Below are positions 35,390 to 47,438 of a stretch of DNA of 64,000 nucleotides, one piece after another. Source of the DNA: Alphaproteobacteria bacterium (GTDB lineage: Bacteria > Pseudomonadota > Alphaproteobacteria > MPNO01 > UBA830); the NCBI GenBank assembly GCA_965243135.1, contig OZ251539.1, forward strand, positions 4,448,001 through 4,512,000. Direction: 5' to 3'. The notes beneath the pieces were generated by a model, which was given only the letters and a program-made list of their open reading frames with translations, was not told the DNA's origin and did not search any database. Position numbers and translations under genes: made by a program. Position 1 is the stretch's first letter. Every line of letters starts with the position of its first letter.

Positions 35390-35616
35390 TCAATTGAGCG
35401 CTCGGCGGAAGGCCAGAGCCTTGGCGGTCTCGGCGCTCATCCATGGGTTGAAGGCGCCAAGCGCCGAACCGAGTCGTCGCGAAACAGCGTTCTGGCCCCG
35501 CCGCTCCGTTTCGCCGTGGCGTCTTCGGATGGAAGGGGAGTCCAGCCGACCTCCGCCGCGCGTGCCGCCACGGGGCACTGGACCGAGGCGGCTTCGCTGA
35601 CGCGGGGCATGCTCAC
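35390..35616 (-). pseudogene. 5' fragment of type I restriction HsdR
   Basis: VSEAASVQCPV...AAEVGWTP...KRSG...LFRD, frameshift, AFNPWMS. Confidence 0.55.
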
Positions 35617-35785
35617 CGCTCCGCCTCGCCGGACGGCGCGGCGTTGGCGTTTCTGGCCGCTGGCACCCCGCTCCGCGTCTTACCGTTCAGCGTTATTTTC
35701 ATCATTTGACACCGCCTCGTCAACGCTTGATATATGGAACGTCGGGTGCCCTTGATGGGCTCGATATGGTTCGCCCAGCCTGACA

Positions 35786-36350
35786 TCACTCGCCCTCCAC
35801 CAGGAGGGTTTTCCGTTTGTATGCGTTCCATGCGTCCCGTGCCGCTCCGACCAGCGGAGAAGGGTCCGGCCACACCTTCAACCCGTTGAGAGTTTCGCCA
35901 TCGATAGAAGTTCGGCAGCGCTTTCTCGAAATACGGGTAGCCGAAATCTTCGAGCTTGAAAGCGCGATAGACGTTGTAGGCCAGCAAATCGGCAAGCTGG
36001 ACGCCGTTCGACAATTCGCTACGGGTAAAGAACGGATATTCGACGATCGCCGGAAAGGTCATATTCCGGTTGCCCGTCCGCTGAAACGAGGCGTGCTTCA
36101 TCGCGACGACACGGTTGAGTTGCCTGCTCGTATCGTCCATCAGCGCACGATGCTTCGGGTGATATTCCCTCATGTAGTGCTGTATCCTTTCCAACAGAAA
36201 TTCGTATGCCTTCATGTAAAGAGTTTCGTGGGTAACGCGGAGAAACCGCTTGTCGATCACGTCGCACATGATGACCGTGTTACGCTCGGTAATCTGACGG
36301 AAATAAGCGTCGGCGAGATCACCTCTCTCGCGAAACTGCCCAAACTACGG
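35786..36350 (-). pseudogene. DUF3800 domain protein, truncated and frameshifted
   Basis: AYEFLLERI, IVEYPFF..S.LS.GVQLADLLAY; C-terminus LKVWP lies in another frame; no clear N-terminus. Confidence 0.7.
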
Positions 36351-36990
36351 CCGATTTCCGCAAACTCCGCCTGCGAACCCCATGCCCGCCTCGCCGACAA
36401 AGCCCACATGGTAGAACCGCGCTCCGAACCGTCAGAATGGTGCGAGAGGCATGACTCGCACAGCGGACAAGGCGGGAAGCGTTTGGTCCGCGCGCCGATG
36501 CCGTGTAGACAGGTGGAGGGAAGCGCAAGCTCAGCGCAGGTCATGAGGACTGACTGAAGATGACGCCATCGAGTAACTGTTTCGCAATGACCGCAACCGA
36601 GCCGGCCGATTCCTCACGAGATCGAAGGCGAACGGGGCGGCCCGCCACCAAGAAGACCGTCGCTCGGCCATGGAACCGCCTGCGTAGCCCTCTTCGCCGG
36701 CCAAGGCCCTACGGCCGTTCCGGTTTAAACACGGCACGATCCGTTCGGGCCGTCCGGTTCCACGCCAGACGGCGCTTCAGGCTGGCTGACATGGTTCGCG
36801 CTCCCGATGATCGACGTTCTCCCTTGGTGGAGCGGGCGGACGAGGCGGGCCTGCACTTCGACGCGGTCGTGGACCGCGAGGAAGAGTTCTCGGTTACGAC
36901 AATGCCTGAAACCGCGTTCCGCCGGGAATGCGATCTCCGGGCGCCATGCCGGGCGGAGGGCGTCATCGGCGAATCGGAGGCGCTGGCTGC

Positions 36991-38811
36991 ATGACCCCTG
37001 CCGACCTCGCAATCCTCATCCAGCAGGGCGAGGGCACCACGCTGGAGTTCAAGGAGAGCCTGTCCTCGTCGTTCGCGCGGGAGCTCGTCGCCCTGGCCAA
37101 TACCATCGGCGGGAAGATCCTCCTCGGCGTGCGCGACGGCGGCAGCGTGGTCGGGATCAAAGACACCAACGGCCTGCGCGCCCACGTTCAGAACGTTGCC
37201 CGCAATTGCGATCCGGCGGTGAAGGTGCTGGTCGAGCCGGTGGACGGGGTGCTCGCGGTCCATGTCCGGGAAAGCAACGCCAAGCCGGTGCAGTGCAGCG
37301 AGGGCTTCTTCTGGCGTCAGGGCGCGGTGACCCAGAAGATGAACCGTGACGAGATCCACGACTTTTTCCGCGCCGAGGGCGCGATCCGGTTCGACCTCTC
37401 GCCCTGCTCCCGCTTCAGCTACCCGGAGGATTTCGACCGCGAGAAGTTCGACGGCTGGCTCGCCCTGTCCGGCATCACCGGAAATCCGCCGGTCGAGGAC
37501 GTGCTGGTCAACATCGAGGTCGCCGAGCGGGCCGGCGACAAGTTGCTCTTCCGCAACGCGGGAGTACTCTTCTTCGCCAAGAACGCGCGTCGTTTCTTCC
37601 CGGAGGCGTACATCACCTGCCTGTTGGCAAGGGGTACGGACAAGGTGCATATCCTGGACCGCAAGGATTTCGACGGCGGCATCGTGGCCGACGTCGAGGA
37701 CGCCATGCGCTTCATCGAGCGCAACACCCGCACCGCCTACCGCATCGAGGGCTTGAGGCGGCAGAACATCCCGGAGTACCCGATGGAGGCCGTGCGCGAA
37801 GCGATCACCAACGCGGTCATGCACCGGGACTGGTTCTTCGACGGCGCCAACGTTTTCGTCGAGGTCTACACGGACCGGATCGAGGTTATCAGCCCCGGCA
37901 GCCTGCCCAAGGGCCTGACCCTGTCCGATCTCGGGCACATGAGCATCCGCCGGAACCCGCTCGTCGCCGACCTGCTCCACCGCATCGACTTCATCGAGAA
38001 GGCGGGCACGGGGATCCGCCGCATCCGGGACGGCGCGAAAGCCGTGGATTGCCCGGAGCCGGAGTTCGAAGCCAACAATTTCGTCACTGTCACTTTTCGT
38101 CCGAACCCGGAAGTGCGGGAGGTGTCGGGGGGTGATCGGGTCGCCGATCAAGTCACCGGGGAAGTCACCGGGGAAGTCACCGGGGAAGTCACCGGGGAAG
38201 TTCGACTGCTACAGGCGATGTCGGGCGAAATGACCAGGCAAGACCTCCAAGAAGCCGTTGGCCTGAAACACGAGGACCATTTCCGCAAAGTCTATCTGAC
38301 ACCAGCTCTTGAGGCCGGCCTGATCGAAACGACCATCCCGGACAAGCCGCGCAGCAGCAAACAGCGATACCGCCTGACGCCCGAGGGAAGCGAGTACCTG
38401 AAACGAAACCCGGAAGTGCGGGAGGTGTCGGGGGGTGATCGGGTCGCCGATCAAGTTACCGATCAAATCACCGGGGAAGTCGCCGGGGAAGTCGCCGGGG
38501 AAGTCGCCGGGGAAGTCGCCGGGGAAGTCGCCGGGGAAGTCGCCGGGGAAGTCGCCGGGGAAGTCGCCGGGGAAGTCGCCGGGGAGGTTCGACTGCTACA
38601 GGCGATGTCGGGCGAAATGACCAGGCAAGACATCCAAGAAACCGTTGGCCTGAAACACGAGGACCATTTCCGCAAAGTCTATCTGACGCCAGCTCTTGAG
38701 GCCGGCCTGATCGAAATGACCATCCCGGACAAGCCGCGCAGCAGCAAACAGCGATACCGCCTGACGCCCGCGGGAAGCGAGTGCCTGAAACGAATCGGAG
38801 AAGCCCGGTAA
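36991..38811 (+). CDS. Schlafen/AlbA_2 + HATPase_c_4 'ATP-binding protein' with a duplicated C-terminal wHTH
   Basis: GEGTTLEFKES, ALANTIGG, EYP.EAVREAITNAVMHRD, ISPG, RNP, EKAGTG; two copies of PDKPRSSKQRYRLT. Confidence 0.9.
   Translation: MTPADLAILIQQGEGTTLEFKESLSSSFARELVALANTIGGKILLGVRDGGSVVGIKDTNGLRAHVQNVARNCDPAVKVLVEPVDGVLAVHVRESNAKPVQCSEGFFWRQGAVTQKMNRDEIHDFFRAEGAIRFDLSPCSRFSYPEDFDREKFDGWLALSGITGNPPVEDVLVNIEVAERAGDKLLFRNAGVLFFAKNARRFFPEAYITCLLARGTDKVHILDRKDFDGGIVADVEDAMRFIERNTRTAYRIEGLRRQNIPEYPMEAVREAITNAVMHRDWFFDGANVFVEVYTDRIEVISPGSLPKGLTLSDLGHMSIRRNPLVADLLHRIDFIEKAGTGIRRIRDGAKAVDCPEPEFEANNFVTVTFRPNPEVREVSGGDRVADQVTGEVTGEVTGEVTGEVRLLQAMSGEMTRQDLQEAVGLKHEDHFRKVYLTPALEAGLIETTIPDKPRSSKQRYRLTPEGSEYLKRNPEVREVSGGDRVADQVTDQITGEVAGEVAGEVAGEVAGEVAGEVAGEVAGEVAGEVAGEVRLLQAMSGEMTRQDIQETVGLKHEDHFRKVYLTPALEAGLIEMTIPDKPRSSKQRYRLTPAGSECLKRIGEAR
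38104..38790 (+). repeat. Tandem duplication of a ~300-bp unit, each copy holding a 12-bp VNTR (RCCGGGGAAGTC x4 and x10)
   Basis: Units start at ~38104 and ~38407; the 10-copy tract spans 38470-38589 and encodes (A/T)GEV. Confidence 0.95.
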
Positions 38812-40613
38812 TGGCGAAGATCAACGTCACGAAGACCGAACTGGTCTGGCCCGGCAAATATAACGATGACGGGTCACTTAAGGAAGTTCCGCGGGTTAAT
38901 CTGCCGTTCCAGATCATCGAGACCGTCAACGAGAGCCGTGCCACCCGCGAGGCGAAGAGGGGCGGCGTGCAGACATCGCTGTTCGACGTCTACGAGGGTA
39001 ACGAGGGCGACACCTTCGAGGAAGGATGGAAGAACAAGCTCATCTGGGGCGACAACCTGCTGGTGATGGGATCGCTCTTGGAGAAGTTCGCAGGGAAAGT
39101 CGATCTGATCTACATTGATCCGCCATTCGCTACGGGGGCAGATTTTTCGTTTACTGCGGAGATTGGTGAATCTGGCCTCAATCTGGAAAAGGAACAGACG
39201 CTAATCGAGGAAAAAGTATATCGGGACACTTGGGGATCAGGTACAGCATCATATCTCAATATGGTGCAGATGAGACTTAATTTACTCAGAGATATATTGA
39301 GCCCTACAGGCAGTATTATCCTCCATTGTGATTTTCGACTCTCCCATCTGCTCGGTGTAGTCCTTGATGAAATATTCGGACTTGGGGATCGGGGGTCTCG
39401 CGCAGATGAACCAGGTTTCCGAAACGAGGTAGTGTGGTTATACGGTCTTGGCGGATCGAGTCCAAAGTGTTATCCAAAGAAACATGACTGCCTACTTTGG
39501 TATTCAAAATCCACTCAATGGTTTTTTGATCCTCCAAAGATTCCGGCAACATCTCAGCGAATGAAGGGGCAGGATAAGAAGTGTCCTGACTATTGGGATA
39601 TTCCCAATATTAATAATATGGCTGACGAGCGTACAGGTTATCCCACACAAAAACCAGAAGCATTGCTGGAGAGAGTTGTCTCTGCGCACTCACGCCCAGG
39701 AGAACTTGTTGCCGATTTTTTCTGCGGCTCCGGTACGACTCTTGCTGTCGCCGAGAAACTCGGACGCCGTTGGATCGGCTGCGACCTAGGACGATGGGGC
39801 ATCCACGTTACCCGAAAGCGGCTGCTCGGTATCCAGAACTGCAAGCCCTTCGATTTGCTGAATCTAGGCAAATACGAACGCCAATACTGGCAAGGCGTAA
39901 CCTTCGGAGAACAAAAAAGCAAGCCCGTTGCCGAGCGAGCACTTTTCGAATATCTTTCCTTTATCCTCAAGCTTTACGGTGCCCAGCCAGTGGCGGGCAA
40001 TGACCATCTGCATGGCAAGAAGTACAAGGCCATGGTCCATATCGGTGCTGTGGATGCGCCAGTAACCATCGGCGAAATCGCATTCACGGTAGAAGAATGC
40101 GTCAAGCTGAAGCAGAAGGAATTGCACGTTCTCGGTTGGGAATGGGAAATGGGCGTTCAGGATCTCGTGGTTCAAGAAGCGAGGCGCAAGGGCGTCAAAC
40201 TACTGCTGTTACAGATCCCTCGCGAGGTCATGGAACAACAGGCCGCCGACAAGGGTGACGTTCGCTTTTTCGAGTTGGCATACTTGGACGCTGTGATCAA
40301 GAAGCCGAAGAAACTCGTCGCGCAAGTGGCGCTCAAGGATTTTGTGATCCCCAACGCCGAGCTCGTCCCGGACGAGGTGCGGAGCAAGATCACGAAGTGG
40401 TCGGACTACATCGACTATTGGGCGGTGGATTGGGATTTCCGAAACGACACCTTCATACAGGGATGGGTGGCCTACCGCACCCGTAAGGACCGGACACTGT
40501 CCCTCGTGTCCGGCGCGCACGCCTATGAGAAGACGGGTCAGTATCAGGTGCTGGTCAAGGTCATCGACATCTTTGGCAACGATACGTCGCAAGCATACGA
40601 GGTCAATGTATAG
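38811..40613 (+). CDS. mod: Type III RM modification methyltransferase
   Basis: NKLIWGDNL, LIYIDPPF, YPTQKPE.LL, DFFCGSGTT, VKVIDIFGND. Confidence 0.9.
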   Translation: MAKINVTKTELVWPGKYNDDGSLKEVPRVNLPFQIIETVNESRATREAKRGGVQTSLFDVYEGNEGDTFEEGWKNKLIWGDNLLVMGSLLEKFAGKVDLIYIDPPFATGADFSFTAEIGESGLNLEKEQTLIEEKVYRDTWGSGTASYLNMVQMRLNLLRDILSPTGSIILHCDFRLSHLLGVVLDEIFGLGDRGSRADEPGFRNEVVWLYGLGGSSPKCYPKKHDCLLWYSKSTQWFFDPPKIPATSQRMKGQDKKCPDYWDIPNINNMADERTGYPTQKPEALLERVVSAHSRPGELVADFFCGSGTTLAVAEKLGRRWIGCDLGRWGIHVTRKRLLGIQNCKPFDLLNLGKYERQYWQGVTFGEQKSKPVAERALFEYLSFILKLYGAQPVAGNDHLHGKKYKAMVHIGAVDAPVTIGEIAFTVEECVKLKQKELHVLGWEWEMGVQDLVVQEARRKGVKLLLLQIPREVMEQQAADKGDVRFFELAYLDAVIKKPKKLVAQVALKDFVIPNAELVPDEVRSKITKWSDYIDYWAVDWDFRNDTFIQGWVAYRTRKDRTLSLVSGAHAYEKTGQYQVLVKVIDIFGNDTSQAYEVNV

Positions 40614-40953
40614 CGCAATGCTGATGCTTCACCCCGAAGAACAAACTTGGCTGGACGAATATCGAAAGGCACTCGGCGAACGGTACCCAGGTGCGGTCTT
40701 GCGCATGGTCATATACGGATCAAAGGCGCGAGGCGATGCGCGAGAGAACAGCGACCTGGATGTACTCATCATTGTCAGAAACGAAGCGACCGCTCTCAAG
40801 ATCCCTCTCCGGTGTATCGGCTACGATCTGGCTACGGAGTCATACGCCGTACCCTCCATTATGGCGTATACGCAGGCCGAATGGGATCGCCTAGAGGCCT
40901 TACGCTCGGCTTACCGGGAATCGGTCGAACGCGACGGGATAACGGTGCTGTGA
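40606..40953 (+). CDS. Minimal nucleotidyltransferase (MNT) antitoxin
   Basis: YGSKARGDARENSDLDVL; C-terminal VERDGI. Confidence 0.85.
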   Translation: MYSAMLMLHPEEQTWLDEYRKALGERYPGAVLRMVIYGSKARGDARENSDLDVLIIVRNEATALKIPLRCIGYDLATESYAVPSIMAYTQAEWDRLEALRSAYRESVERDGITVL

Positions 40954-41252
40954 ACCGGGAAATGACGGCGGCAGAGCGGCGCGCAGTGAAGTCTCTGGGC
41001 ACCGCCAAAATCCTGATGCGCTCCGGCTACCCGGAGGATGCAGTGTCCCGGTGCTACTATGCGGTTCTGCATGCCGCCAAATCGGCGCTGTTCGTGCACG
41101 ATGTCGACACTGCGAGTCATGCCGCGGTGCGCAGGATGTTCGGCCTCCATCTTGTGCGTTGGGGCGAAGTCGAACAGCAATGGGCGAGTGCGCTCGCTCG
41201 GACGATGGACGGCCGACTGATGGCCGACTACAGCGCAGATGCGCGCTTATGA
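40950..41252 (+). CDS. HEPN domain protein, C-terminus apparently frameshifted
   Basis: GTGA overlap; AVSRCYYAVLHAAK, SH, R..ADY. A probable tail (..DQQLELEHGND) continues out of frame to ~41360. Confidence 0.75.
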   Translation: MNREMTAAERRAVKSLGTAKILMRSGYPEDAVSRCYYAVLHAAKSALFVHDVDTASHAAVRRMFGLHLVRWGEVEQQWASALARTMDGRLMADYSADARL

Positions 41253-41391: not shown

Positions 41392-44250
41392 ATGGCAAAC
41401 GCCGTCATTCGCTACGACAGGGAGCTGCCGGAGATTCGAGGCCGCCGACCGTGGGAGCCGCCCGTTTCCCATCTGGTCAAGGACGACGACGGCTGGCACG
41501 AAGACGACTCCGGCCGCCGGCCGAGTAGGCTGTTGCTGGCGCCGAAGATTCGCGATGCGGTGAACGCTTGGCGCGACGGCGGGTATCAGGGCGCCTCCGA
41601 AGTCACCCGACGTCTGTTGGAATACTGGTTCGAGGAAGATCACGAGGTCGACGACTTCGACGTGCCGTTCCGATACCACTTCTGCCAGCGCGAGGCGATA
41701 GAGACGTTGATCTGGCTGGTGGAAATCAATGGCCAGCGCGACGCGAAAGCGTTGATCGAGGCCCACGGAACGATCGTTCAGAGGGATCTGGCTTCGAAGA
41801 ACCTCGAGTTCCAGACGACGATGGAAGGGAAGCGCCAGCTTCGCCGCTACATCCCGGAACGGGAAGCGGAAGGCGTGCAGGATCTGCCGCCCGAGAACCT
41901 GCGCCGGTTCGCCTTCAAGATGGCCACCGGCTCGGGCAAGACTTGGGCAATGGTGATGGCCATCGTCTGGTCCCGCCTCCACAAGCAGCACGTTTCCGGT
42001 TCGGACATGTCGACGAATTTCCTCGTCGTCGCGCCCAACGTCATCGTGTATCAACGGTTGGAGAAGGACTTCGCGAACAATCGGATATTCCGTCGGCTTC
42101 CGCTCGTTCCGCCGGAATGGCGGGGCGGTTTCTCACAGAAAGTGATTCTTCGAGGGGAGGCCACCGAACCAGATCCGTCAGGAAATCTTTTTCTTACCAA
42201 CATTCACCAACTCTACGAGTCGCGCGACCACGATTGGACACCGGGGAACGCCGTCGAGGCGCTTCTAGGCATGAAGCCGTCGCAAGACCTCGCGTCGTCC
42301 GCTCAGCGCTCAATGTTGGAACGGATTATGTCGCTCAAGGACCTCGTCGTGTTGAACGACGAAGCGCATCATGTCCACGACGATGCCCTTTGGAACAAAT
42401 CGCTTCTCGCCGTTCACGAAGCGCTGCCGCACGGCCTTGGTGCTTGGCTCGATTTCTCGGCCACGCCGAAGGACCAGAACGGCATGTATTTCCCCTGGAC
42501 GGTCGTGGATTACCCGCTAGCGCAAGCCGTAGAAGATCGAATCGTCAAAGCCCCCATCATCGTCACAAAGGAGGCCGACCAGAATCAGCCGACCGAAGAT
42601 CCCCACGTGAAGGACATTAACAGGCACAACGTGGCGGAGAAGTACGGCTACTGGCTACAGGCCGCGGTTCGGCGCTGGAAGGAGCACCAAAAGGCGTACA
42701 AGAAGCTGGGCATCAGGCCAGTGCTCTTCATCATGGCGGAGAAGAACGTCTACGCCGACGTCTTGGGCGAGCATCTATGGAACACCAAGGAGTTCGGCTT
42801 CAAACAGTCCGAGGTGCTCGTCATCCATACCAACAATGAAGGTGAGATCAACAACGAGCGTGATCTCGAAAAGGCCCGGCAAGCGGCCCGAGACATCGAC
42901 GACGCCGACAGCAGGATCAAGGCCATCGTCAGCGTGATGATGCTGCGCGAGGGATGGGACGTGCGCAACGTGACTGTCGTGCTGGGCCTGCGGCCGTTCA
43001 CCGCCACAGCCGAAATCCTCCCAGAGCAGGTGATCGGGCGCGGGTTGCGCCTGATGACGCAGGTAAGTCCGGACCGGACGCAGACCCTGGAAGTGCTCGG
43101 CACGCGCAATCTGCTCAACGTCCTCCGCGAGCAACTGGAGGCGGAAGGCGTCGGTGTGGCGAGCACGCCGACCAATCCGCCATCGCCGATCGTCATCGAA
43201 CCGGTGAAGGAACGACTGGAGTACGACATTGCCGTTCCCATCACCAAACCCAGCCTGAAGCACGACCACCGCAAGCTATCGAATCTGGACGTGCAGTCCC
43301 TCAAGCCGGTATTCGATCAGAAAGAGCTCGACGAGCGGTTCCGGATCACGCTGAAACTGGAATTCGCCACGACCGAAACCGAAGTGCATCACGAAGACAT
43401 CCCCGGCGGCGGGCGGCCCGTCGAGGAAATCCTGGCCGACGTGACCAACTTGGTGGCTGGCAAGGCAGGGCTGACCAATCGTTTCGCGGAGTTGTACCCT
43501 AAGATACGCGAGTACGTCGGGAGTCGGTGTTTCGGCCGGGAGGTCGACATGGACGACGACGCCCTCCGCTCCCATCTGGCCCGACTGGAAATAAGGGAAG
43601 GCATCGCCGATTACCTTGTCCGCAAGATCGCCGATCTCACCGTCGAACGCCGAGAGATCGAATTCGACAAGGAGGGCTTCCGCCTGTCCGAAACCAGACC
43701 CTTCAGCTGGCGGCGAAACCTTCCGCCTCTGGAAGCGCGGAAAACGGTGTTCAATTTCGTCGCCACCTACAACGATTTCGAGCGCGGCTTTGCGGAATTC
43801 ATGGACGGAGCGGAGGACATCCTGCGCTTCGCTGCGTTGGGCACGACGGAACAGGGGGCCTCCGGCACGTCGTTCCGCGTCGATTACCTGAAGCCGAGCG
43901 GCACCATCGGGTTCTACTACCCGGACTGGGTGGCCGTTCAGCGCGACGCAGAAGGCGGGATAGTCAACTGGATCGTCGAGACCAAGGGCCGCGTCTGGGA
44001 AGGCACCGACGAGAAAGATGCCGCTATGCAGGAATGGTGCCGACGCGTTACCGAGGCAACGGGCGATGCCTGGAAGTACATCCGCGTGAACCAGATCGAT
44101 TTCCGCCCGGACTTCGCCACTTTTCGAGCGCTCGTATTCGCCTTGGTCGGCAAGGTCATGACTCGAAAGCGCGACGCGAGCGGAGCCATCATGTCGCGCG
44201 AGGAGTTTCTTCAATGGCGGGATGAGGGTCGTCGCGAATGGCCATTGTGA
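41392..44250 (+). CDS. res: Type III restriction endonuclease Res subunit (SF2 helicase + PD-(D/E)XK)
   Basis: QREAIET, KMATGSGKT, NDEAHH, SATP, MLREGWD, QVIGRGLR, YYPDW...VETKG. Confidence 0.92.
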   Translation: MANAVIRYDRELPEIRGRRPWEPPVSHLVKDDDGWHEDDSGRRPSRLLLAPKIRDAVNAWRDGGYQGASEVTRRLLEYWFEEDHEVDDFDVPFRYHFCQREAIETLIWLVEINGQRDAKALIEAHGTIVQRDLASKNLEFQTTMEGKRQLRRYIPEREAEGVQDLPPENLRRFAFKMATGSGKTWAMVMAIVWSRLHKQHVSGSDMSTNFLVVAPNVIVYQRLEKDFANNRIFRRLPLVPPEWRGGFSQKVILRGEATEPDPSGNLFLTNIHQLYESRDHDWTPGNAVEALLGMKPSQDLASSAQRSMLERIMSLKDLVVLNDEAHHVHDDALWNKSLLAVHEALPHGLGAWLDFSATPKDQNGMYFPWTVVDYPLAQAVEDRIVKAPIIVTKEADQNQPTEDPHVKDINRHNVAEKYGYWLQAAVRRWKEHQKAYKKLGIRPVLFIMAEKNVYADVLGEHLWNTKEFGFKQSEVLVIHTNNEGEINNERDLEKARQAARDIDDADSRIKAIVSVMMLREGWDVRNVTVVLGLRPFTATAEILPEQVIGRGLRLMTQVSPDRTQTLEVLGTRNLLNVLREQLEAEGVGVASTPTNPPSPIVIEPVKERLEYDIAVPITKPSLKHDHRKLSNLDVQSLKPVFDQKELDERFRITLKLEFATTETEVHHEDIPGGGRPVEEILADVTNLVAGKAGLTNRFAELYPKIREYVGSRCFGREVDMDDDALRSHLARLEIREGIADYLVRKIADLTVERREIEFDKEGFRLSETRPFSWRRNLPPLEARKTVFNFVATYNDFERGFAEFMDGAEDILRFAALGTTEQGASGTSFRVDYLKPSGTIGFYYPDWVAVQRDAEGGIVNWIVETKGRVWEGTDEKDAAMQEWCRRVTEATGDAWKYIRVNQIDFRPDFATFRALVFALVGKVMTRKRDASGAIMSREEFLQWRDEGRREWPL

Positions 44251-44645
44251 TCGATGCTTCCATCGCCATCGCTTGGCGCCTGCGGGATCGTGAAGGAATG
44301 CCTTATGCCGATTCCGCGATCGAACGGGGTGGGCTGGAGAGCGTCGTCGTGCCGGATTTGTTCTGGCACGAAGTGCGCGACGTCCTGCTGGTCGCGGAGC
44401 GCAAAGGGCGCGTTGACGCCGACACTGCGGAAGATCATCTGAAAGACCTGCGCCAACTATCTTTCCAATCCGACGGCGATCAAAGTGACGATCTGATCGC
44501 CGAGCTGGTCCGTCGCCACGGCCTCAGCGGCTACGACGCAGCGTACCTGGAGACTGCGATACGCCGCGGGGCTAAACTCGCCACCCTCGACAAGAGCCTC
44601 GCGGATGCCGCTGCCAAAGAGGGCGTTTTCATGGAGGGCGACTGA
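44238..44645 (+). CDS. vapC: VapC/PIN toxin
   Basis: IVIDAS, WHEV, LSGYDAAYL, LATLD; overlaps the res 3' end by 13 nt. Confidence 0.9.
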   Translation: MAIVIDASIAIAWRLRDREGMPYADSAIERGGLESVVVPDLFWHEVRDVLLVAERKGRVDADTAEDHLKDLRQLSFQSDGDQSDDLIAELVRRHGLSGYDAAYLETAIRRGAKLATLDKSLADAAAKEGVFMEGD

Positions 44646-45047
44646 TCTCGCATCAGGCGAATTGTTCTTGGAAGGGCTGTTCGCCCGCCTGCGAGTCCAC
44701 GTTTTCCCAAGGGTCTGATCCGCCGGGCGAGCGCGCCCGAGGCACACCGCATGTGAATGGAAATGACGGGAAACTTCGACGTTGCTGATCGCCATCGCGC
44801 AAATCGTCGTCAGCAAGTCGCCATCGTCGCCTACGGCATCCGGCGAACAATAGACGAGCGGCATACGCGCGAGCAAGACCGGAGACACATTGGAAGCCAT
44901 GCGCGCGCTGGAAACGCTGGCGCGCCGGAAGAGCTTCCTGAGCGCCCCGCACGGTGCCGCTTCCCTCCTTGAAAAATGGTCGGGCCCCCGAATGTCGGCG
45001 CCGCGGGCGCGCCGTTCGACGCCGGGCCGAAAACCGGCACTGGCATC

Positions 45048-45290
45048 TCAGGCTTCCCGAAGCATCTTGAGGGCATGGCGAAAAGGCTGGCGGCCGTGCG
45101 CTGGACGCATGCGCCATCGTGCAGGAGAATACCGTAGGTGAAGCGGTCGCTCGCAGCCTCCTTCAAGTGCGCCAGCCCGCGGAAGTCTTTCGGCTGCTCT
45201 GTCGCGCCCACCATGACCCTGACGGTCCCGTCCGGGGAGCGCTCCGGAACCAGATGCAACCCGTCGACGAGGTCGGCACGTTCGGAAACG
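45048..45290 (-). pseudogene. C-terminal remnant of an AAA_14/DUF4143 ATP-binding protein
   Basis: DFRGLAHLKEAASDRF..GILLHDG...LFAMP; no N-terminal part. Confidence 0.6.
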
Positions 45291-45662
45291 TCCAGACGGT
45301 TCCAAGCTGCGGCGCACCCGGCAGCCCCCACCCGCTCGCGGTGCCCGTAGAACTATTCGCTTGTCCGTCGCGAGAGCGCAAAGGGCTGGTCTGCGAATGT
45401 CCGCGGGGGAAGCCGAACTCGCGGCAACCTTCTGCGGCTGGCGCGCGAAAGGTGCGGCCCGGCGGACAACGGCCCGCTGCTGCGCCCAGACACGCTCGGG
45501 CTCTGCTTGACAAGATTCTGTCTATTCGTAGCGCTTTAGCGAATGCGCGAATCGGTCGTCTCTGAGCGGATTTGCGCTCGCAGGGCAGCGCCAGCATCTT
45601 GATTCCCGCATCTTCTTGCGGGAGAGTTTCGGAAAAACGATCCTCCGAGTAGTTTCGAGACG

Positions 45663-47438
45663 ATGAGCCGCAAGAAACGACGAAGGCTGCCCGGCAAGCC
45701 GACAAAGCGGCCCGCCCCGCCGCCGGCGCACTTGCCGGCCTCGGCAGCGACGATCACTGGAGATTGGTTCGCGCAGCCGCTTGCCGCCCCGGTTCTCGCT
45801 CTTTTGGTGACCGTCAGCTACGGCCCTGCGTTCTTTGCCGGCTTCGTATGGGACGACGCGGTATTCACGGAAGCTGGAGCGATCCAGGATTGGTCCGGCT
45901 TGTTTCGCATCTGGCTCTCTCCCCGCGCCTTGGAGAACGAGGGACACTACTGGCCGCTGGTCTATACGACCTTCTGGCTTGAGCACAAGCTCTGGGGGTT
46001 CGCTCCGGCCGGCTACCACATCGTCAACGTTCTCCTGCACATCGCCAACACCCTGCTTCTCTGGCGCCTGGCCGAACGGCTGGCCGTACCCGGCGCGTGG
46101 GCGATCGCCGCCGTCTTCGCCGTCCATCCCCTGCACGTCGAGTCCGTCGCTTGGGTCATCGAACGCAAGGACCTGCTCTCGGGCCTGTTCTACCTCGCCG
46201 CCTTCCTGACCTGGATCCGCTTCGTCGAGCGGCCGCGGCCCGGGCGTTACCTCCTGGTGCTGGCGCTGTTCGCGCTGGGAATGCTCTGCAAATCCATCGT
46301 GGTGACGCTGCCCGCGGCGCTGGCGATCTGGCACTGGTGGAAGCAGGGCCGGATCTCGGGAACCGACCTTCTCCGGCTGGCGCCTCTCGCCGCCGCGGGC
46401 GCGGCGATCGCGGCGCTGGACGTGTCGTTCTACAACGAGAGGGAGCCGGTTTCCCTGGGCTACACGGCGGTCGAGCGGATGCTGATCGCGGCGCAGGCGC
46501 TGTGGTTCTACGTCGGCAAGCTGCTGTGGCCGGGCGGGCTGGCGGTGATCTATCCGCATTGGGAAGTGAGCGCCGGAAACCCGGCGGGGTGGGCCTGCCT
46601 CGCGGCGGCGGCAGCGGCTGTCGCGGTCCTGTGGCTCCTCCGTCATCGGCTCGGCCGGGGGGCCCTGGCGGGCGTTCTCTTCTTTGTGGTGACGCTGTCG
46701 CCGGTTCTGGGGTTCGTGGACTACGGCTACATGCAGTTCTCGTTCGTGGCCGACCGCCACCAGTATCTGGCGGGGATCGGGCTGATCGCGGTGCTCGTGG
46801 GCGCGGCGGCGCGCGGCGCGAGCCGCCTGCCGACGTGGCGCAAGGGCGCGGCCGGCGCCGCGGCCGTCGTGCTGGTCGTCCTCGGGGTGCTGACGTGGCG
46901 GCACGCGGAAATCTATCGCGACGAAGTGACCTTCTTCGCTCATGTCGTCGCGCACAACCCGACGGCGCGCGGCGCGCAACAAAATCTCGGCAAAGCCCTG
47001 CTGGCCGCGCAACGCCCGGAGGAAGCGCTGGCCGCTTCCCGCGCAGCGGTGGAACACGCGCCGGACGACGTCAAGGCCCACGCGAACGCAGGCGCCGCGC
47101 TCATACGGATGGGCCGGCTCGACGAGGCGGAAGAGCAACTGCGCCGCGCCCTGGAGATCGATCCGAGTCATCCGATCGTTCTCCAAAATCTGGCGGAGTC
47201 CTTGCGGAAACTGGGAAGATTCGAGGAAGCGCTCCAGTTCTACCGCGCCGCGATAAAGGCGAACGTCGGAAACGCCCTCCCGCACGCGGGCCTGGGCCAC
47301 GCGCTGGTTGGCCTCGAACGGTACGAGGAGGCCGTCAAAAGCCTCGATCGGGCGCTGGAGCTGGCGCCGGATCTCGATTCGGTCCGCGCCATGCGCGAAA
47401 CGGCGATGTCGCGTCTTCGGAAGGCGGGAGATCGTTGA
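45663..47438 (+). CDS. TMTC-like GT-C glycosyltransferase with C-terminal TPRs (copy 1)
   Basis: FVWDD, YWPL, HIVNVLLH, FAVHPLHVESVAWV, ADRHQY, multiple TMs, TPR motifs. Confidence 0.85.
   Translation: MSRKKRRRLPGKPTKRPAPPPAHLPASAATITGDWFAQPLAAPVLALLVTVSYGPAFFAGFVWDDAVFTEAGAIQDWSGLFRIWLSPRALENEGHYWPLVYTTFWLEHKLWGFAPAGYHIVNVLLHIANTLLLWRLAERLAVPGAWAIAAVFAVHPLHVESVAWVIERKDLLSGLFYLAAFLTWIRFVERPRPGRYLLVLALFALGMLCKSIVVTLPAALAIWHWWKQGRISGTDLLRLAPLAAAGAAIAALDVSFYNEREPVSLGYTAVERMLIAAQALWFYVGKLLWPGGLAVIYPHWEVSAGNPAGWACLAAAAAAVAVLWLLRHRLGRGALAGVLFFVVTLSPVLGFVDYGYMQFSFVADRHQYLAGIGLIAVLVGAAARGASRLPTWRKGAAGAAAVVLVVLGVLTWRHAEIYRDEVTFFAHVVAHNPTARGAQQNLGKALLAAQRPEEALAASRAAVEHAPDDVKAHANAGAALIRMGRLDEAEEQLRRALEIDPSHPIVLQNLAESLRKLGRFEEALQFYRAAIKANVGNALPHAGLGHALVGLERYEEAVKSLDRALELAPDLDSVRAMRETAMSRLRKAGDR

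Follow-up and report, generated by a model that had tools for sequence, protein, structure and literature searches.

Restriction-modification and toxin-antitoxin systems are usually treated as neighbours within defence islands. In the excerpted part of the survey by Matelska et al. (2017, PMC5499597) genes for PIN-domain proteins are described as transcriptionally coupled to subunits of Type I restriction-modification systems, sometimes without antitoxins and in contexts that are not conserved between close species, and the same part states that nobody had yet shown toxin-antitoxin and restriction-modification systems to interact directly. T4 Stp, as given in an excerpt of PMC12707154, inhibits the Type Ic enzyme EcoprrI and activates the anticodon nuclease PrrC, which is latent with EcoprrI. 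In the solved VapBC2 complex, according to a section of PMC3326315, two arginines of the antitoxin, Arg66 and Arg74, make contact with Glu43 and Asp99 of the toxin; the toxin dimer has a groove that connects its two active sites, and the C-terminal end of one antitoxin occupies it. Here we analyse a stretch of 64,000 nucleotides of an Alphaproteobacteria bacterium (assembly GCA_965243135.1, contig OZ251539.1, positions 4,448,001 to 4,512,000; hereafter the window), in which the restriction subunit (Res) of a Type III-like system ends in a tail of antitoxin ancestry and runs into an intact vapC toxin gene. We propose that this Res tail is probably the toxin-binding segment of a Phd/YefM-type VapB antitoxin and would hold the downstream VapC inactive. 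The elements concerned, in window positions and with lengths in amino acids (aa) or nucleotides (nt) and expectation (E) values of the matches, are as follows.

41392..44250, + strand: Res, Type III-like restriction subunit, 952 aa (PF04851 1.4e-16; PADLOC REase_III 1.3e-18; weak match to EcoP15I Res, 4zcf_C, 7.7e-4)
44143..44250, + strand: antitoxin-like tail, Res residues 918-952 (from comparison with tail-less relatives and antitoxin ends; predicted interface residues 912-952)
44158..44160, + strand: in-frame ATG, Met923 (read from the sequence; residue position compared in 120 close sequences)
44224..44228, + strand: GAGGG, putative Shine-Dalgarno-like element 10 nt before the vapC ATG, within the Asp-Glu-Gly codons of the tail (read from the sequence)
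44238..44645, + strand: VapC-like PIN-domain toxin gene, 135 aa (PF01850 3.4e-14; D6, E45, D100 and D118 intact)

Res is composed of an SF2 helicase domain (ResIII ATPase), a putative C-terminal nuclease region and, at its end, the antitoxin-derived tail. The nuclease family PF19778 (RE_endonuc) matches Res at E 0.041, under the family cut-off; a PDW...ETKG motif is visible in Res, and PF19778 is assigned in precomputed annotation to some Res homologues, e.g. P0056 and P0100. The protein ends in GKVMTRKRDASGAIMSREEFLQWRDEGRREWPL, and the vapC ATG at 44238 gives a 13-nt overlap with the Res stop. As judged from its sequence, vapC is an intact toxin gene with a PIN fold and four acidic residues, D6, E45, D100 and D118, which are invariant in 20 sequences. 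Toxins of the VapC type are RNases that inhibit growth, an effect relieved by the cognate antitoxin. A separate antitoxin gene has no room upstream of vapC, between it and Res, and was not found beside vapC by the family scan of open reading frames (ORFs) together with the comparison of downstream DNA: none of six ORFs lying about vapC or beyond it (44457-45562, both strands) matches Pfam, and the DNA 3' of the PIN gene differs from locus to locus, only 3 of 136 pairs, all of them close relatives, being alike. The 30-aa tail alone matches no Pfam family. A preliminary description of this DNA had claimed a Res tail that overlaps an intact vapC lacking its own antitoxin gene, as well as an in-frame ATG at 44158, and both claims are borne out. 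It had also conceded that the fusion might be a one-off deletion or an assembly artefact. The artefact is ruled out by contigs of sequencing runs from three studies, one run of which may be the source sample, that bridge the junction (44100-44300) without indels: X2 record 3 spans 43986-44540 and X4 record 14 spans 44077-44337, each with 0 differences, and X5 record 19 spans 44016-44543 with 15 substitutions and no gaps. The one-off deletion is ruled out by the presence of the tail in Res homologues and across genome loci.

Using Res residues 700-952 as query, 1362 proteins were recovered at E<=1e-3, and the best 120, nearly all 945-955 aa in length, were examined. The same tail, with an EGR-type motif in the last 9 residues, is found in 119 of these best 120; the sole exception, P0088, ends at 920 aa. 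Residues R912, R927, E938, E945, G946 and R947 do not vary among 23 aligned, diverse homologues that share 70-85% identity with the window Res. Variable sites in the tail-coding region number 17, 14 and 26 at codon positions 1, 2 and 3 (27 codons, 9 sequences), and this pattern indicates protein-level constraint in the Res frame. Tail-less relatives stop about 15-25 residues past the RVNQ..F motif (~residue 904), and no stop between the Res core and the tail occurs in the 119 tailed proteins or in the 18 intact-tail loci described below. The tail and the catalytic residues of VapC are conserved across homologues down to ~58% Res identity and in several phyla.

The ancestry of the tail is revealed by free antitoxins. 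VapC homologues 45-49% identical to that of the window, found in the genomes of relatives, are each preceded by a separate gene of ~80 aa whose stop overlaps the vapC start (for example MARHVKIGEAKTHLSALLAEVEAGEDLVICRGSTPIAHVTRILSAGDHAALSATLRRERARQQPVTTAEILAWRHEGHTR in L002) and whose product matches PF02604 (Phd/YefM). In this VapC clade the free antitoxins have the ending ...S/T..E(I/L)L.(A/W)R(D/H)EG(R/H).. and stop at the vapC start, and the Res tail aligns with their last ~27 residues. In pairwise BLASTP of C-terminal segments the tail of L026 and the antitoxin of L008 share 15/26 identities (E 5e-6), the better of the two tail alignments run, and the tail of L023 and the antitoxin of L002 share 10/18 (E 6e-6). 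A Pfam scan found no match to PF02604 in Res or in its tail. By sequence comparison the tail is antitoxin-derived, yet Res is not a member of the Phd/YefM family: the C-terminal segment of toxin-binding type lies directly upstream of the toxin gene and overlaps it, and the separate small protein with an N-terminal domain is missing.

A census centred on the toxin leads to the same ancestry. Metagenome contigs searched with the VapC alignment yielded 80 loci, in 78 of which an ORF with an antitoxin-type ending abuts the vapC start, the remaining 2 lying at contig ends. Short Phd-type ORFs account for 77 of the 78, and one is a further Res fusion of 962 aa (L104). The ending S..E.....EGRR, which the preliminary description had given for antitoxins of this class, is verified by these 78 loci and by the free antitoxins of relatives. 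A 31-position tail profile, derived from 17 Res tails together with 4 free antitoxin ends, was run against 1.84 billion proteins and yielded 39 matches at E<=1e-3, of which 28 were retrieved. They include free antitoxins of 79-113 aa matched at the very C-terminus, such as P0137 (1.6e-7), P0155 (ending in VSVEEILAWRDEGRK) and P0156 (ending in VSLEEILQWRDEGRK), and also Res fragments; PF02604 is present in 11 of the 22 matches scanned. P0150 (GYF), P0153 (EF-hand) and P0170 were rejected as false positives, and in P0147 (716 aa) the profile matched in 11 stretches. A word-based search for shorter tail-bearing proteins produced 9 candidates of 104-316 aa and was uninformative.

Two of the profile matches, P0138 and P0144, have a tail of the free type (...RRERAKQ..VTT.EILSWRHEGHA.) and no Phd/YefM domain, which suggests that tail-only antitoxins also exist outside the Res context. 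Four others join the tail in frame to parts of neighbouring genes: P0139 begins as Mod (62% identical to Mod residues 14-60, E 9e-17), P0143 begins as the MNT protein (56% identical to that of the window, E 2e-22), and in P0136 and P0140 a RadC N-domain is joined to the last ~45 residues of Res. These chimeras may be deletion scars that kept the tail in frame, and they would fit deletions tolerated only because the tail stayed expressed; as the search was made with the tail itself the set is biased, and we regard it as a lead and not as evidence.

The linkage of tail and toxin was followed in a scan of one genome per species, which confirmed 580 Res relatives; of the best 80 loci, which were retained, 77 had a Res C-terminus that could be assessed. 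An intact EGR-type tail is present in 18 of the 77 (L021, L022, L023, L024, L026, L027, L029, L032, L043, L044, L051, L056, L064, L073, L074, L079, L083 and L085), labelled by their metagenome-assembled genomes as Pseudomonadota, Acidobacteriota, Gemmatimonadota, Latescibacterota, Actinomycetota and Chloroflexota. Two loci, both without a PIN gene, have a decayed tail (L030, L052), one has a different long tail (L059) and 56 are tail-less. A PIN ORF, sought by PF01850 scan and tblastn, is located at the Res stop in 16 of the 18 intact-tail loci, its start lying 25 nt to 1 nt before the end of the Res stop codon; further loci pairing an EGR-tailed Res with vapC, whose search had been advised earlier, thus exist. 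The other two, L023 and L027, kept the tail and have convergent unrelated genes in place of PIN. In the 56 tail-less loci no PIN gene was found (0/56), with at least 450 nt of downstream DNA available in 43 and less in 13. PIN without the tail was never seen among the assessed loci, while the tail without PIN occurs and appears to decay; retention of the tail in L023 and L027 is the tolerated direction of loss. The asymmetry is therefore as a toxin and its antidote predict. Regarding L023, two convergent genes follow the intact tail (L023:7863-9615, - strand), and the one of 364 aa contains by eye a P-loop-like motif, GASGSGKT.

The fusion has recurred convergently. In L059 a Res of the same clade ends in PSLKELLLAPNPRTDELAPPREPHSHRPPPEFE, and a PIN gene, the product of which is 13% identical to the window VapC, begins 3 nt later. 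The genome from which the window comes encodes a PIN protein (L101) 49% identical to that of L059, and its free Phd-type antitoxin ends in QPDLKALLLAPEARTEMLAPPRARHGHRPASAFE. The tail of L059 and the end of the L101 antitoxin are 62% identical over 34 residues (E 5e-12), both running to the C-terminus; we take antitoxin and PIN of L059 and L101 to be of the FitA/FitB type, names that are our assumption. By this comparison a second antitoxin-tail fusion arose independently in this Res family. That the same site of Res carries antitoxin tails of two unrelated kinds, each paired with a PIN clade of its own, is a strong argument for function. Apart from this, two of the three FitB-like PIN copies of the window's own genome, L101 and L102 (G000:C1:826181-826447, 3402183-3402569), have one internal stop each (TAG, TGA), and the antitoxin upstream of the L101 copy is intact.

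In a FastTree phylogeny of 69 Res cores with the tails removed, all tail-bearing Res fall in one clade of 45 rows (support 100), and a tail-less clade of 23 rows is nested inside it (support 98), together with L068. In the VapC tree the 17 Res-linked sequences form two groups beside the free L008 and L107 (joint support weak, 72), and the label of Res linkage needs 2 changes, against a shuffled mean of 14.9, none of 500 shuffles being as low. The trees and the pairwise alignments fit the capture of an L008-like vapBC module followed by its co-inheritance with Res.

A complex of VapC (alignment of 20 sequences) with Res residues 905-952 (alignment of 23) was modelled, as had been suggested for tail and toxin. 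The interface score (ipSAE, interaction prediction score from aligned errors) is 0.68 (0.68, 0.72 and 0.61 in the single runs), compared with a maximum of 0.00 among 3 controls; the runs have at least 89% of contacts in common, and the partner has a predicted local distance difference test (pLDDT) score of at least 68. Res 912-952 is predicted to contact VapC residues around D6, E45, D100 and D118, and the modelled R947 contacts E45, residue 48 and Y99 of VapC, so placed that Arg947 on the active site would represent an inhibitory pose. The PDB chains nearest to VapC by sequence profile are the antitoxin-free PAE0151 and PAE2754. The model supports, as a prediction rather than a demonstration, binding of the tail to VapC.

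Based on our data we propose that the N-terminal DNA-binding and dimerisation domain of the antitoxin would have been replaced by a whole restriction subunit, so that the last ~30-35 residues of Res would serve as the toxin-binding C-terminal segment of a Phd/YefM-type VapB, and the product of the translationally coupled downstream gene would be an RNase toxin, an intact VapC (PIN). Most probably the tail winds around the PIN domain and sets Arg947 of the EGR motif against the acidic active site, and VapC would be inactive only while bound to full-length Res. Removal or depletion of Res through gene loss, proteolysis or phage shut-off of host synthesis could then free VapC, and a phage anti-restriction factor that disturbs the Res C-terminus could likewise release it. 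The system would make the cell addicted to the restriction genes, provide a back-up layer of abortive infection, or do both. Speculatively, two Res subunits could be linked through a VapC dimer to which two tails bind.

Several points weigh against the fused-antitoxin proposal. We infer binding, neutralisation and toxicity from comparison and modelling. The calibration of the complex model, in which 116 of 157 solved complexes and 2 of 215 mismatched pairs attained the mark, is only roughly valid here, our own alignments having been used, and solved VapBC complexes exist in the PDB, such that the pass may reflect likeness to known structures. The model of full-length Res is poor (mean pLDDT 54.6), and its tail region has just one helix at 911-930 and another, weak one at 936-945. 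A narrow hidden Markov model (HMM) of the 119 tails reaches the free antitoxins of relatives at E 0.03-1 only (~89,600 ORFs of the relatives' loci), and in the window's own genome its self match alone is significant, the antitoxin of the paralogous L015 pair being missed. As the EG codons of the tail double as the putative vapC ribosome-binding site, part of the conservation of the EG motif would be due to the same codons encoding that site. The census loci are related, and counts such as 16 of 18 and 0 of 56 are not independent events; no fewer than 4 changes of the tail label are required on the Res phylogeny, and among them gain and loss are indistinguishable.

That the tail-PIN pair is co-inherited with Res across phyla, and that the Res C-terminus is recurrently coupled to partner genes (DruA in L045 and L065; family-less ORFs in L034, L068, L071, L087 and L092), would also suit a PIN protein acting as a constructive nuclease subunit that is recruited by the tail as a docking peptide, e.g. 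to degrade phage RNA or nucleic-acid intermediates, and PIN nucleases are raised as possible restriction modules in the excerpt of PMC5499597. We consider this unlikely, given that the same VapC clade otherwise occurs in classical two-gene toxin-antitoxin pairs (77 loci), that the predicted position of Arg947 on the active site would be inhibitory, and that loci with the tail minus PIN exist, yet none with PIN minus the tail, an asymmetry predicted for a toxin. Hardly credible, in our view, is a tail that is a functionless relic of a vapB destroyed by insertion of the restriction genes, VapC being inactive or neutralised by another antitoxin of the genome. The genome does contain a paralogous Phd-VapC pair, L015, the VapC of which is 37% identical to that of the window, but the failure of the Res-tail HMM to detect the L015 antitoxin argues against cross-neutralisation, and a relic is at odds both with the conservation of the tail and the four catalytic residues to ~58% Res identity across several phyla and with the decay of the tail where PIN is gone (L030, L052).

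The preliminary description had supposed that either Res itself or a nested 30-aa product neutralises VapC. Comparison and modelling uphold its view of the tail as an antitoxin-derived segment that would bind the toxin; the nested product fares worse. Were the true antitoxin a peptide of ~30 aa translated from the ATG at 44158, the continuity with Res would be incidental, and it is in keeping with such a peptide that Met occupies position 923 in 101 of 120 close sequences (the 119 homologues and the window Res) and that in P0138 and P0144 a tail of the free type occurs with no Phd domain. Nevertheless, position 923 is V in 12, I in 6 and R in 1 of the 120, and Met is absent from it in the tails of L023, L024, L029, L043, L056 and L073, a whole tail subclade. 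No Shine-Dalgarno sequence or purine run is conserved before 44158, where the window has AAGG just 2 nt upstream, and none of the 119 homologues and 18 loci has the stop between core and tail that would separate the two. The free antitoxins have Leu or Met at the column aligned to Met923, which fits a contact residue, and Res residues 923-924 lie within the predicted interface; a hydrophobic contact there would explain the conservation of Met923, which is probably a contact residue rather than a conserved start codon. A nested peptide as the true antitoxin is thus quite improbable; it is disfavoured as the conserved mechanism, though it might operate in this one strain.

Returning to the locus in which the proposed Res antitoxin resides, the other genes of the operon and the next gene downstream with a family match are listed below.

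36928..38811, + strand: accessory gene of SLFN/AlbA_2-HATPase_c_4-Fic-like_C architecture, 627 aa (PF04326 9.5e-18, PF13749 1.7e-22, PF21247 7.4e-54)
38781..40613, + strand: Mod, Type III DNA methyltransferase, 610 aa (PF01555 4.3e-39; PADLOC MTase_III 5.3e-119)
~40618..40953, + strand: MNT-type nucleotidyltransferase (PF01909 7.4e-10; PADLOC PDC-S09 1.5e-14, profile match from residue 36; start approximate, the listed ORF starting at 40525, within mod)
~40950..41252, + strand: HEPN-domain gene (PF05168 1.7e-10, residues 111-197 of a 201-aa ORF; start approximate, the listed ORF starting at 40647)
45663-47435: TPR/PMT_2 glycosyltransferase-like ORF (family scan)

The 627-aa accessory gene overlaps the start of mod and is context, outside the tail-toxin pair. 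The same SLFN-like type is found upstream of mod in L021, L022, L051 and L056, and in other loci its place is taken by a 954-aa UvrD-helicase/PD-(D/E)XK protein or by a RadC gene; the SLFN-like gene also matches the PADLOC pAgo model (7.8e-26) and the Aga SIR2-PNTD models. Mod lies directly upstream of Res in related loci as it does here. MNT and HEPN (40525-41252) constitute a second toxin-antitoxin-like pair nested between mod and res, and MNT or HEPN genes occupy the equivalent position in L021, L026 and L060. Just upstream of the operon, on the opposite strand, is a DUF3800 ORF (35613-36266, - strand; PF12686, E 9.9e-10). The G+C content of the 39-45 kb stretch is 49-62%, compared with ~69-70% in the flanks, and the best identity of the VapC query in the genomes of 60 relatives is not above 49%, on account of which the restriction-toxin module looks horizontally acquired; no tRNA gene is present within the window.

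In the tail-less relatives the end of Res is likewise occupied. A DruA (Druantia) gene overlaps the Res stop in L045 and L065, an OLD-like ATPase/TOPRIM gene follows Res in L038 and a SIR2_2 gene follows it in L100. ORFs without a family overlap the Res stop by 4 nt in five tail-less loci (L034:7763-8344, L068:7769-8608, L071:7809-8183, L087:7207-7533 and L092:7727-end); none of the five has a Pfam match, and the four that were scanned (L034, L068, L071, L087) have no PADLOC match. Translationally coupled partner genes seem to gather preferentially at the Res C-terminus. At the other end of the operon, a protein of ~1000 aa with NOV_C is encoded upstream of mod in L033, L038 and L045, members of the tail-less sister clade.

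Viewed together, it is conceivable, and we put it forward with more doubt than confidence, that phylum-spanning Type III enzymes swapped the free VapBC antitoxin for a Res tail at least twice independently, with unrelated tails and PIN clades, and that the integrity of Res would be a checkpoint of an RNase toxin. If so, a single polypeptide would hard-wire addiction to res and a counter to anti-restriction, namely abortive infection once Res is broken down or blocked or its synthesis has ceased, and antitoxin tails could, as we suggest, be portable 'guard wires' that are graftable onto other defence proteins. The predicted physical link between toxin and restriction enzyme is written in the protein sequence itself, is conserved across several phyla and has apparently arisen twice, providing a simple and testable model for how a first-line defence is wired to a suicide or back-up response. 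The same arrangement offers an explanation for 'orphan' PIN toxins next to restriction genes: in annotation such vapC genes would be labelled orphan toxins and the Res tail overlooked. A peptide of ~30 aa with an EGR motif is searchable on other defence proteins.

Compared with canonical VapBC modules that have a Phd/YefM-type antitoxin, the locus shares the PIN clade, the pattern of the C-terminal ending and the overlap of the stop with the start of vapC, but here there is neither a separate small antitoxin nor a Phd/YefM domain, and the tail is the end of a 952-aa restriction subunit; autoregulation through an antitoxin operator was presumably lost in the fusion to Res. As far as the section of PMC3326315 goes, the predicted pose resembles VapBC2 of Rickettsia felis in setting an arginine at the acidic site. 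With Type III enzymes of the EcoP15I type the locus has in common the order mod-res, a Mod of Type III class and a Res made of an SF2 helicase and a putative C-terminal nuclease region. Type III enzymes are characterised by an ATP-dependent cleavage that needs two unmodified sites in inverse orientation. Unlike EcoP15I Res, to which the relation is very distant (E 7.7e-4 to 4zcf_C over ~50 residues), the present family also has the tail, a PIN gene and accessory genes that vary (SLFN-like, UvrD-nuclease, RadC and MNT-HEPN). The closest functional analogue of a guarding Res is PrrC/EcoprrI, where, as here, the restriction and modification genes have among them one for a toxic RNase whose activity presumably follows the state of the restriction enzyme. 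A guard role, in which the toxin would be released upon loss or inhibition of Res, is plausible. The toxin here is a PIN protein as opposed to PrrC, the restriction system is of Type III as opposed to Ic, and no antitoxin-derived peptide on a restriction subunit restrains PrrC, so the present system is not a member of the PrrC type. A full-text literature search found no description of a Res-antitoxin fusion, and Supplementary Figure S7 of PMC5499597 may show related operons. The cases of Matelska et al. (2017), to the extent that the excerpt presents them, are alike in that PIN toxins stand in restriction-modification operons; in comparison with them, the system described here is of Type III, is conserved across phyla, and has its missing antitoxin as the tail of Res.

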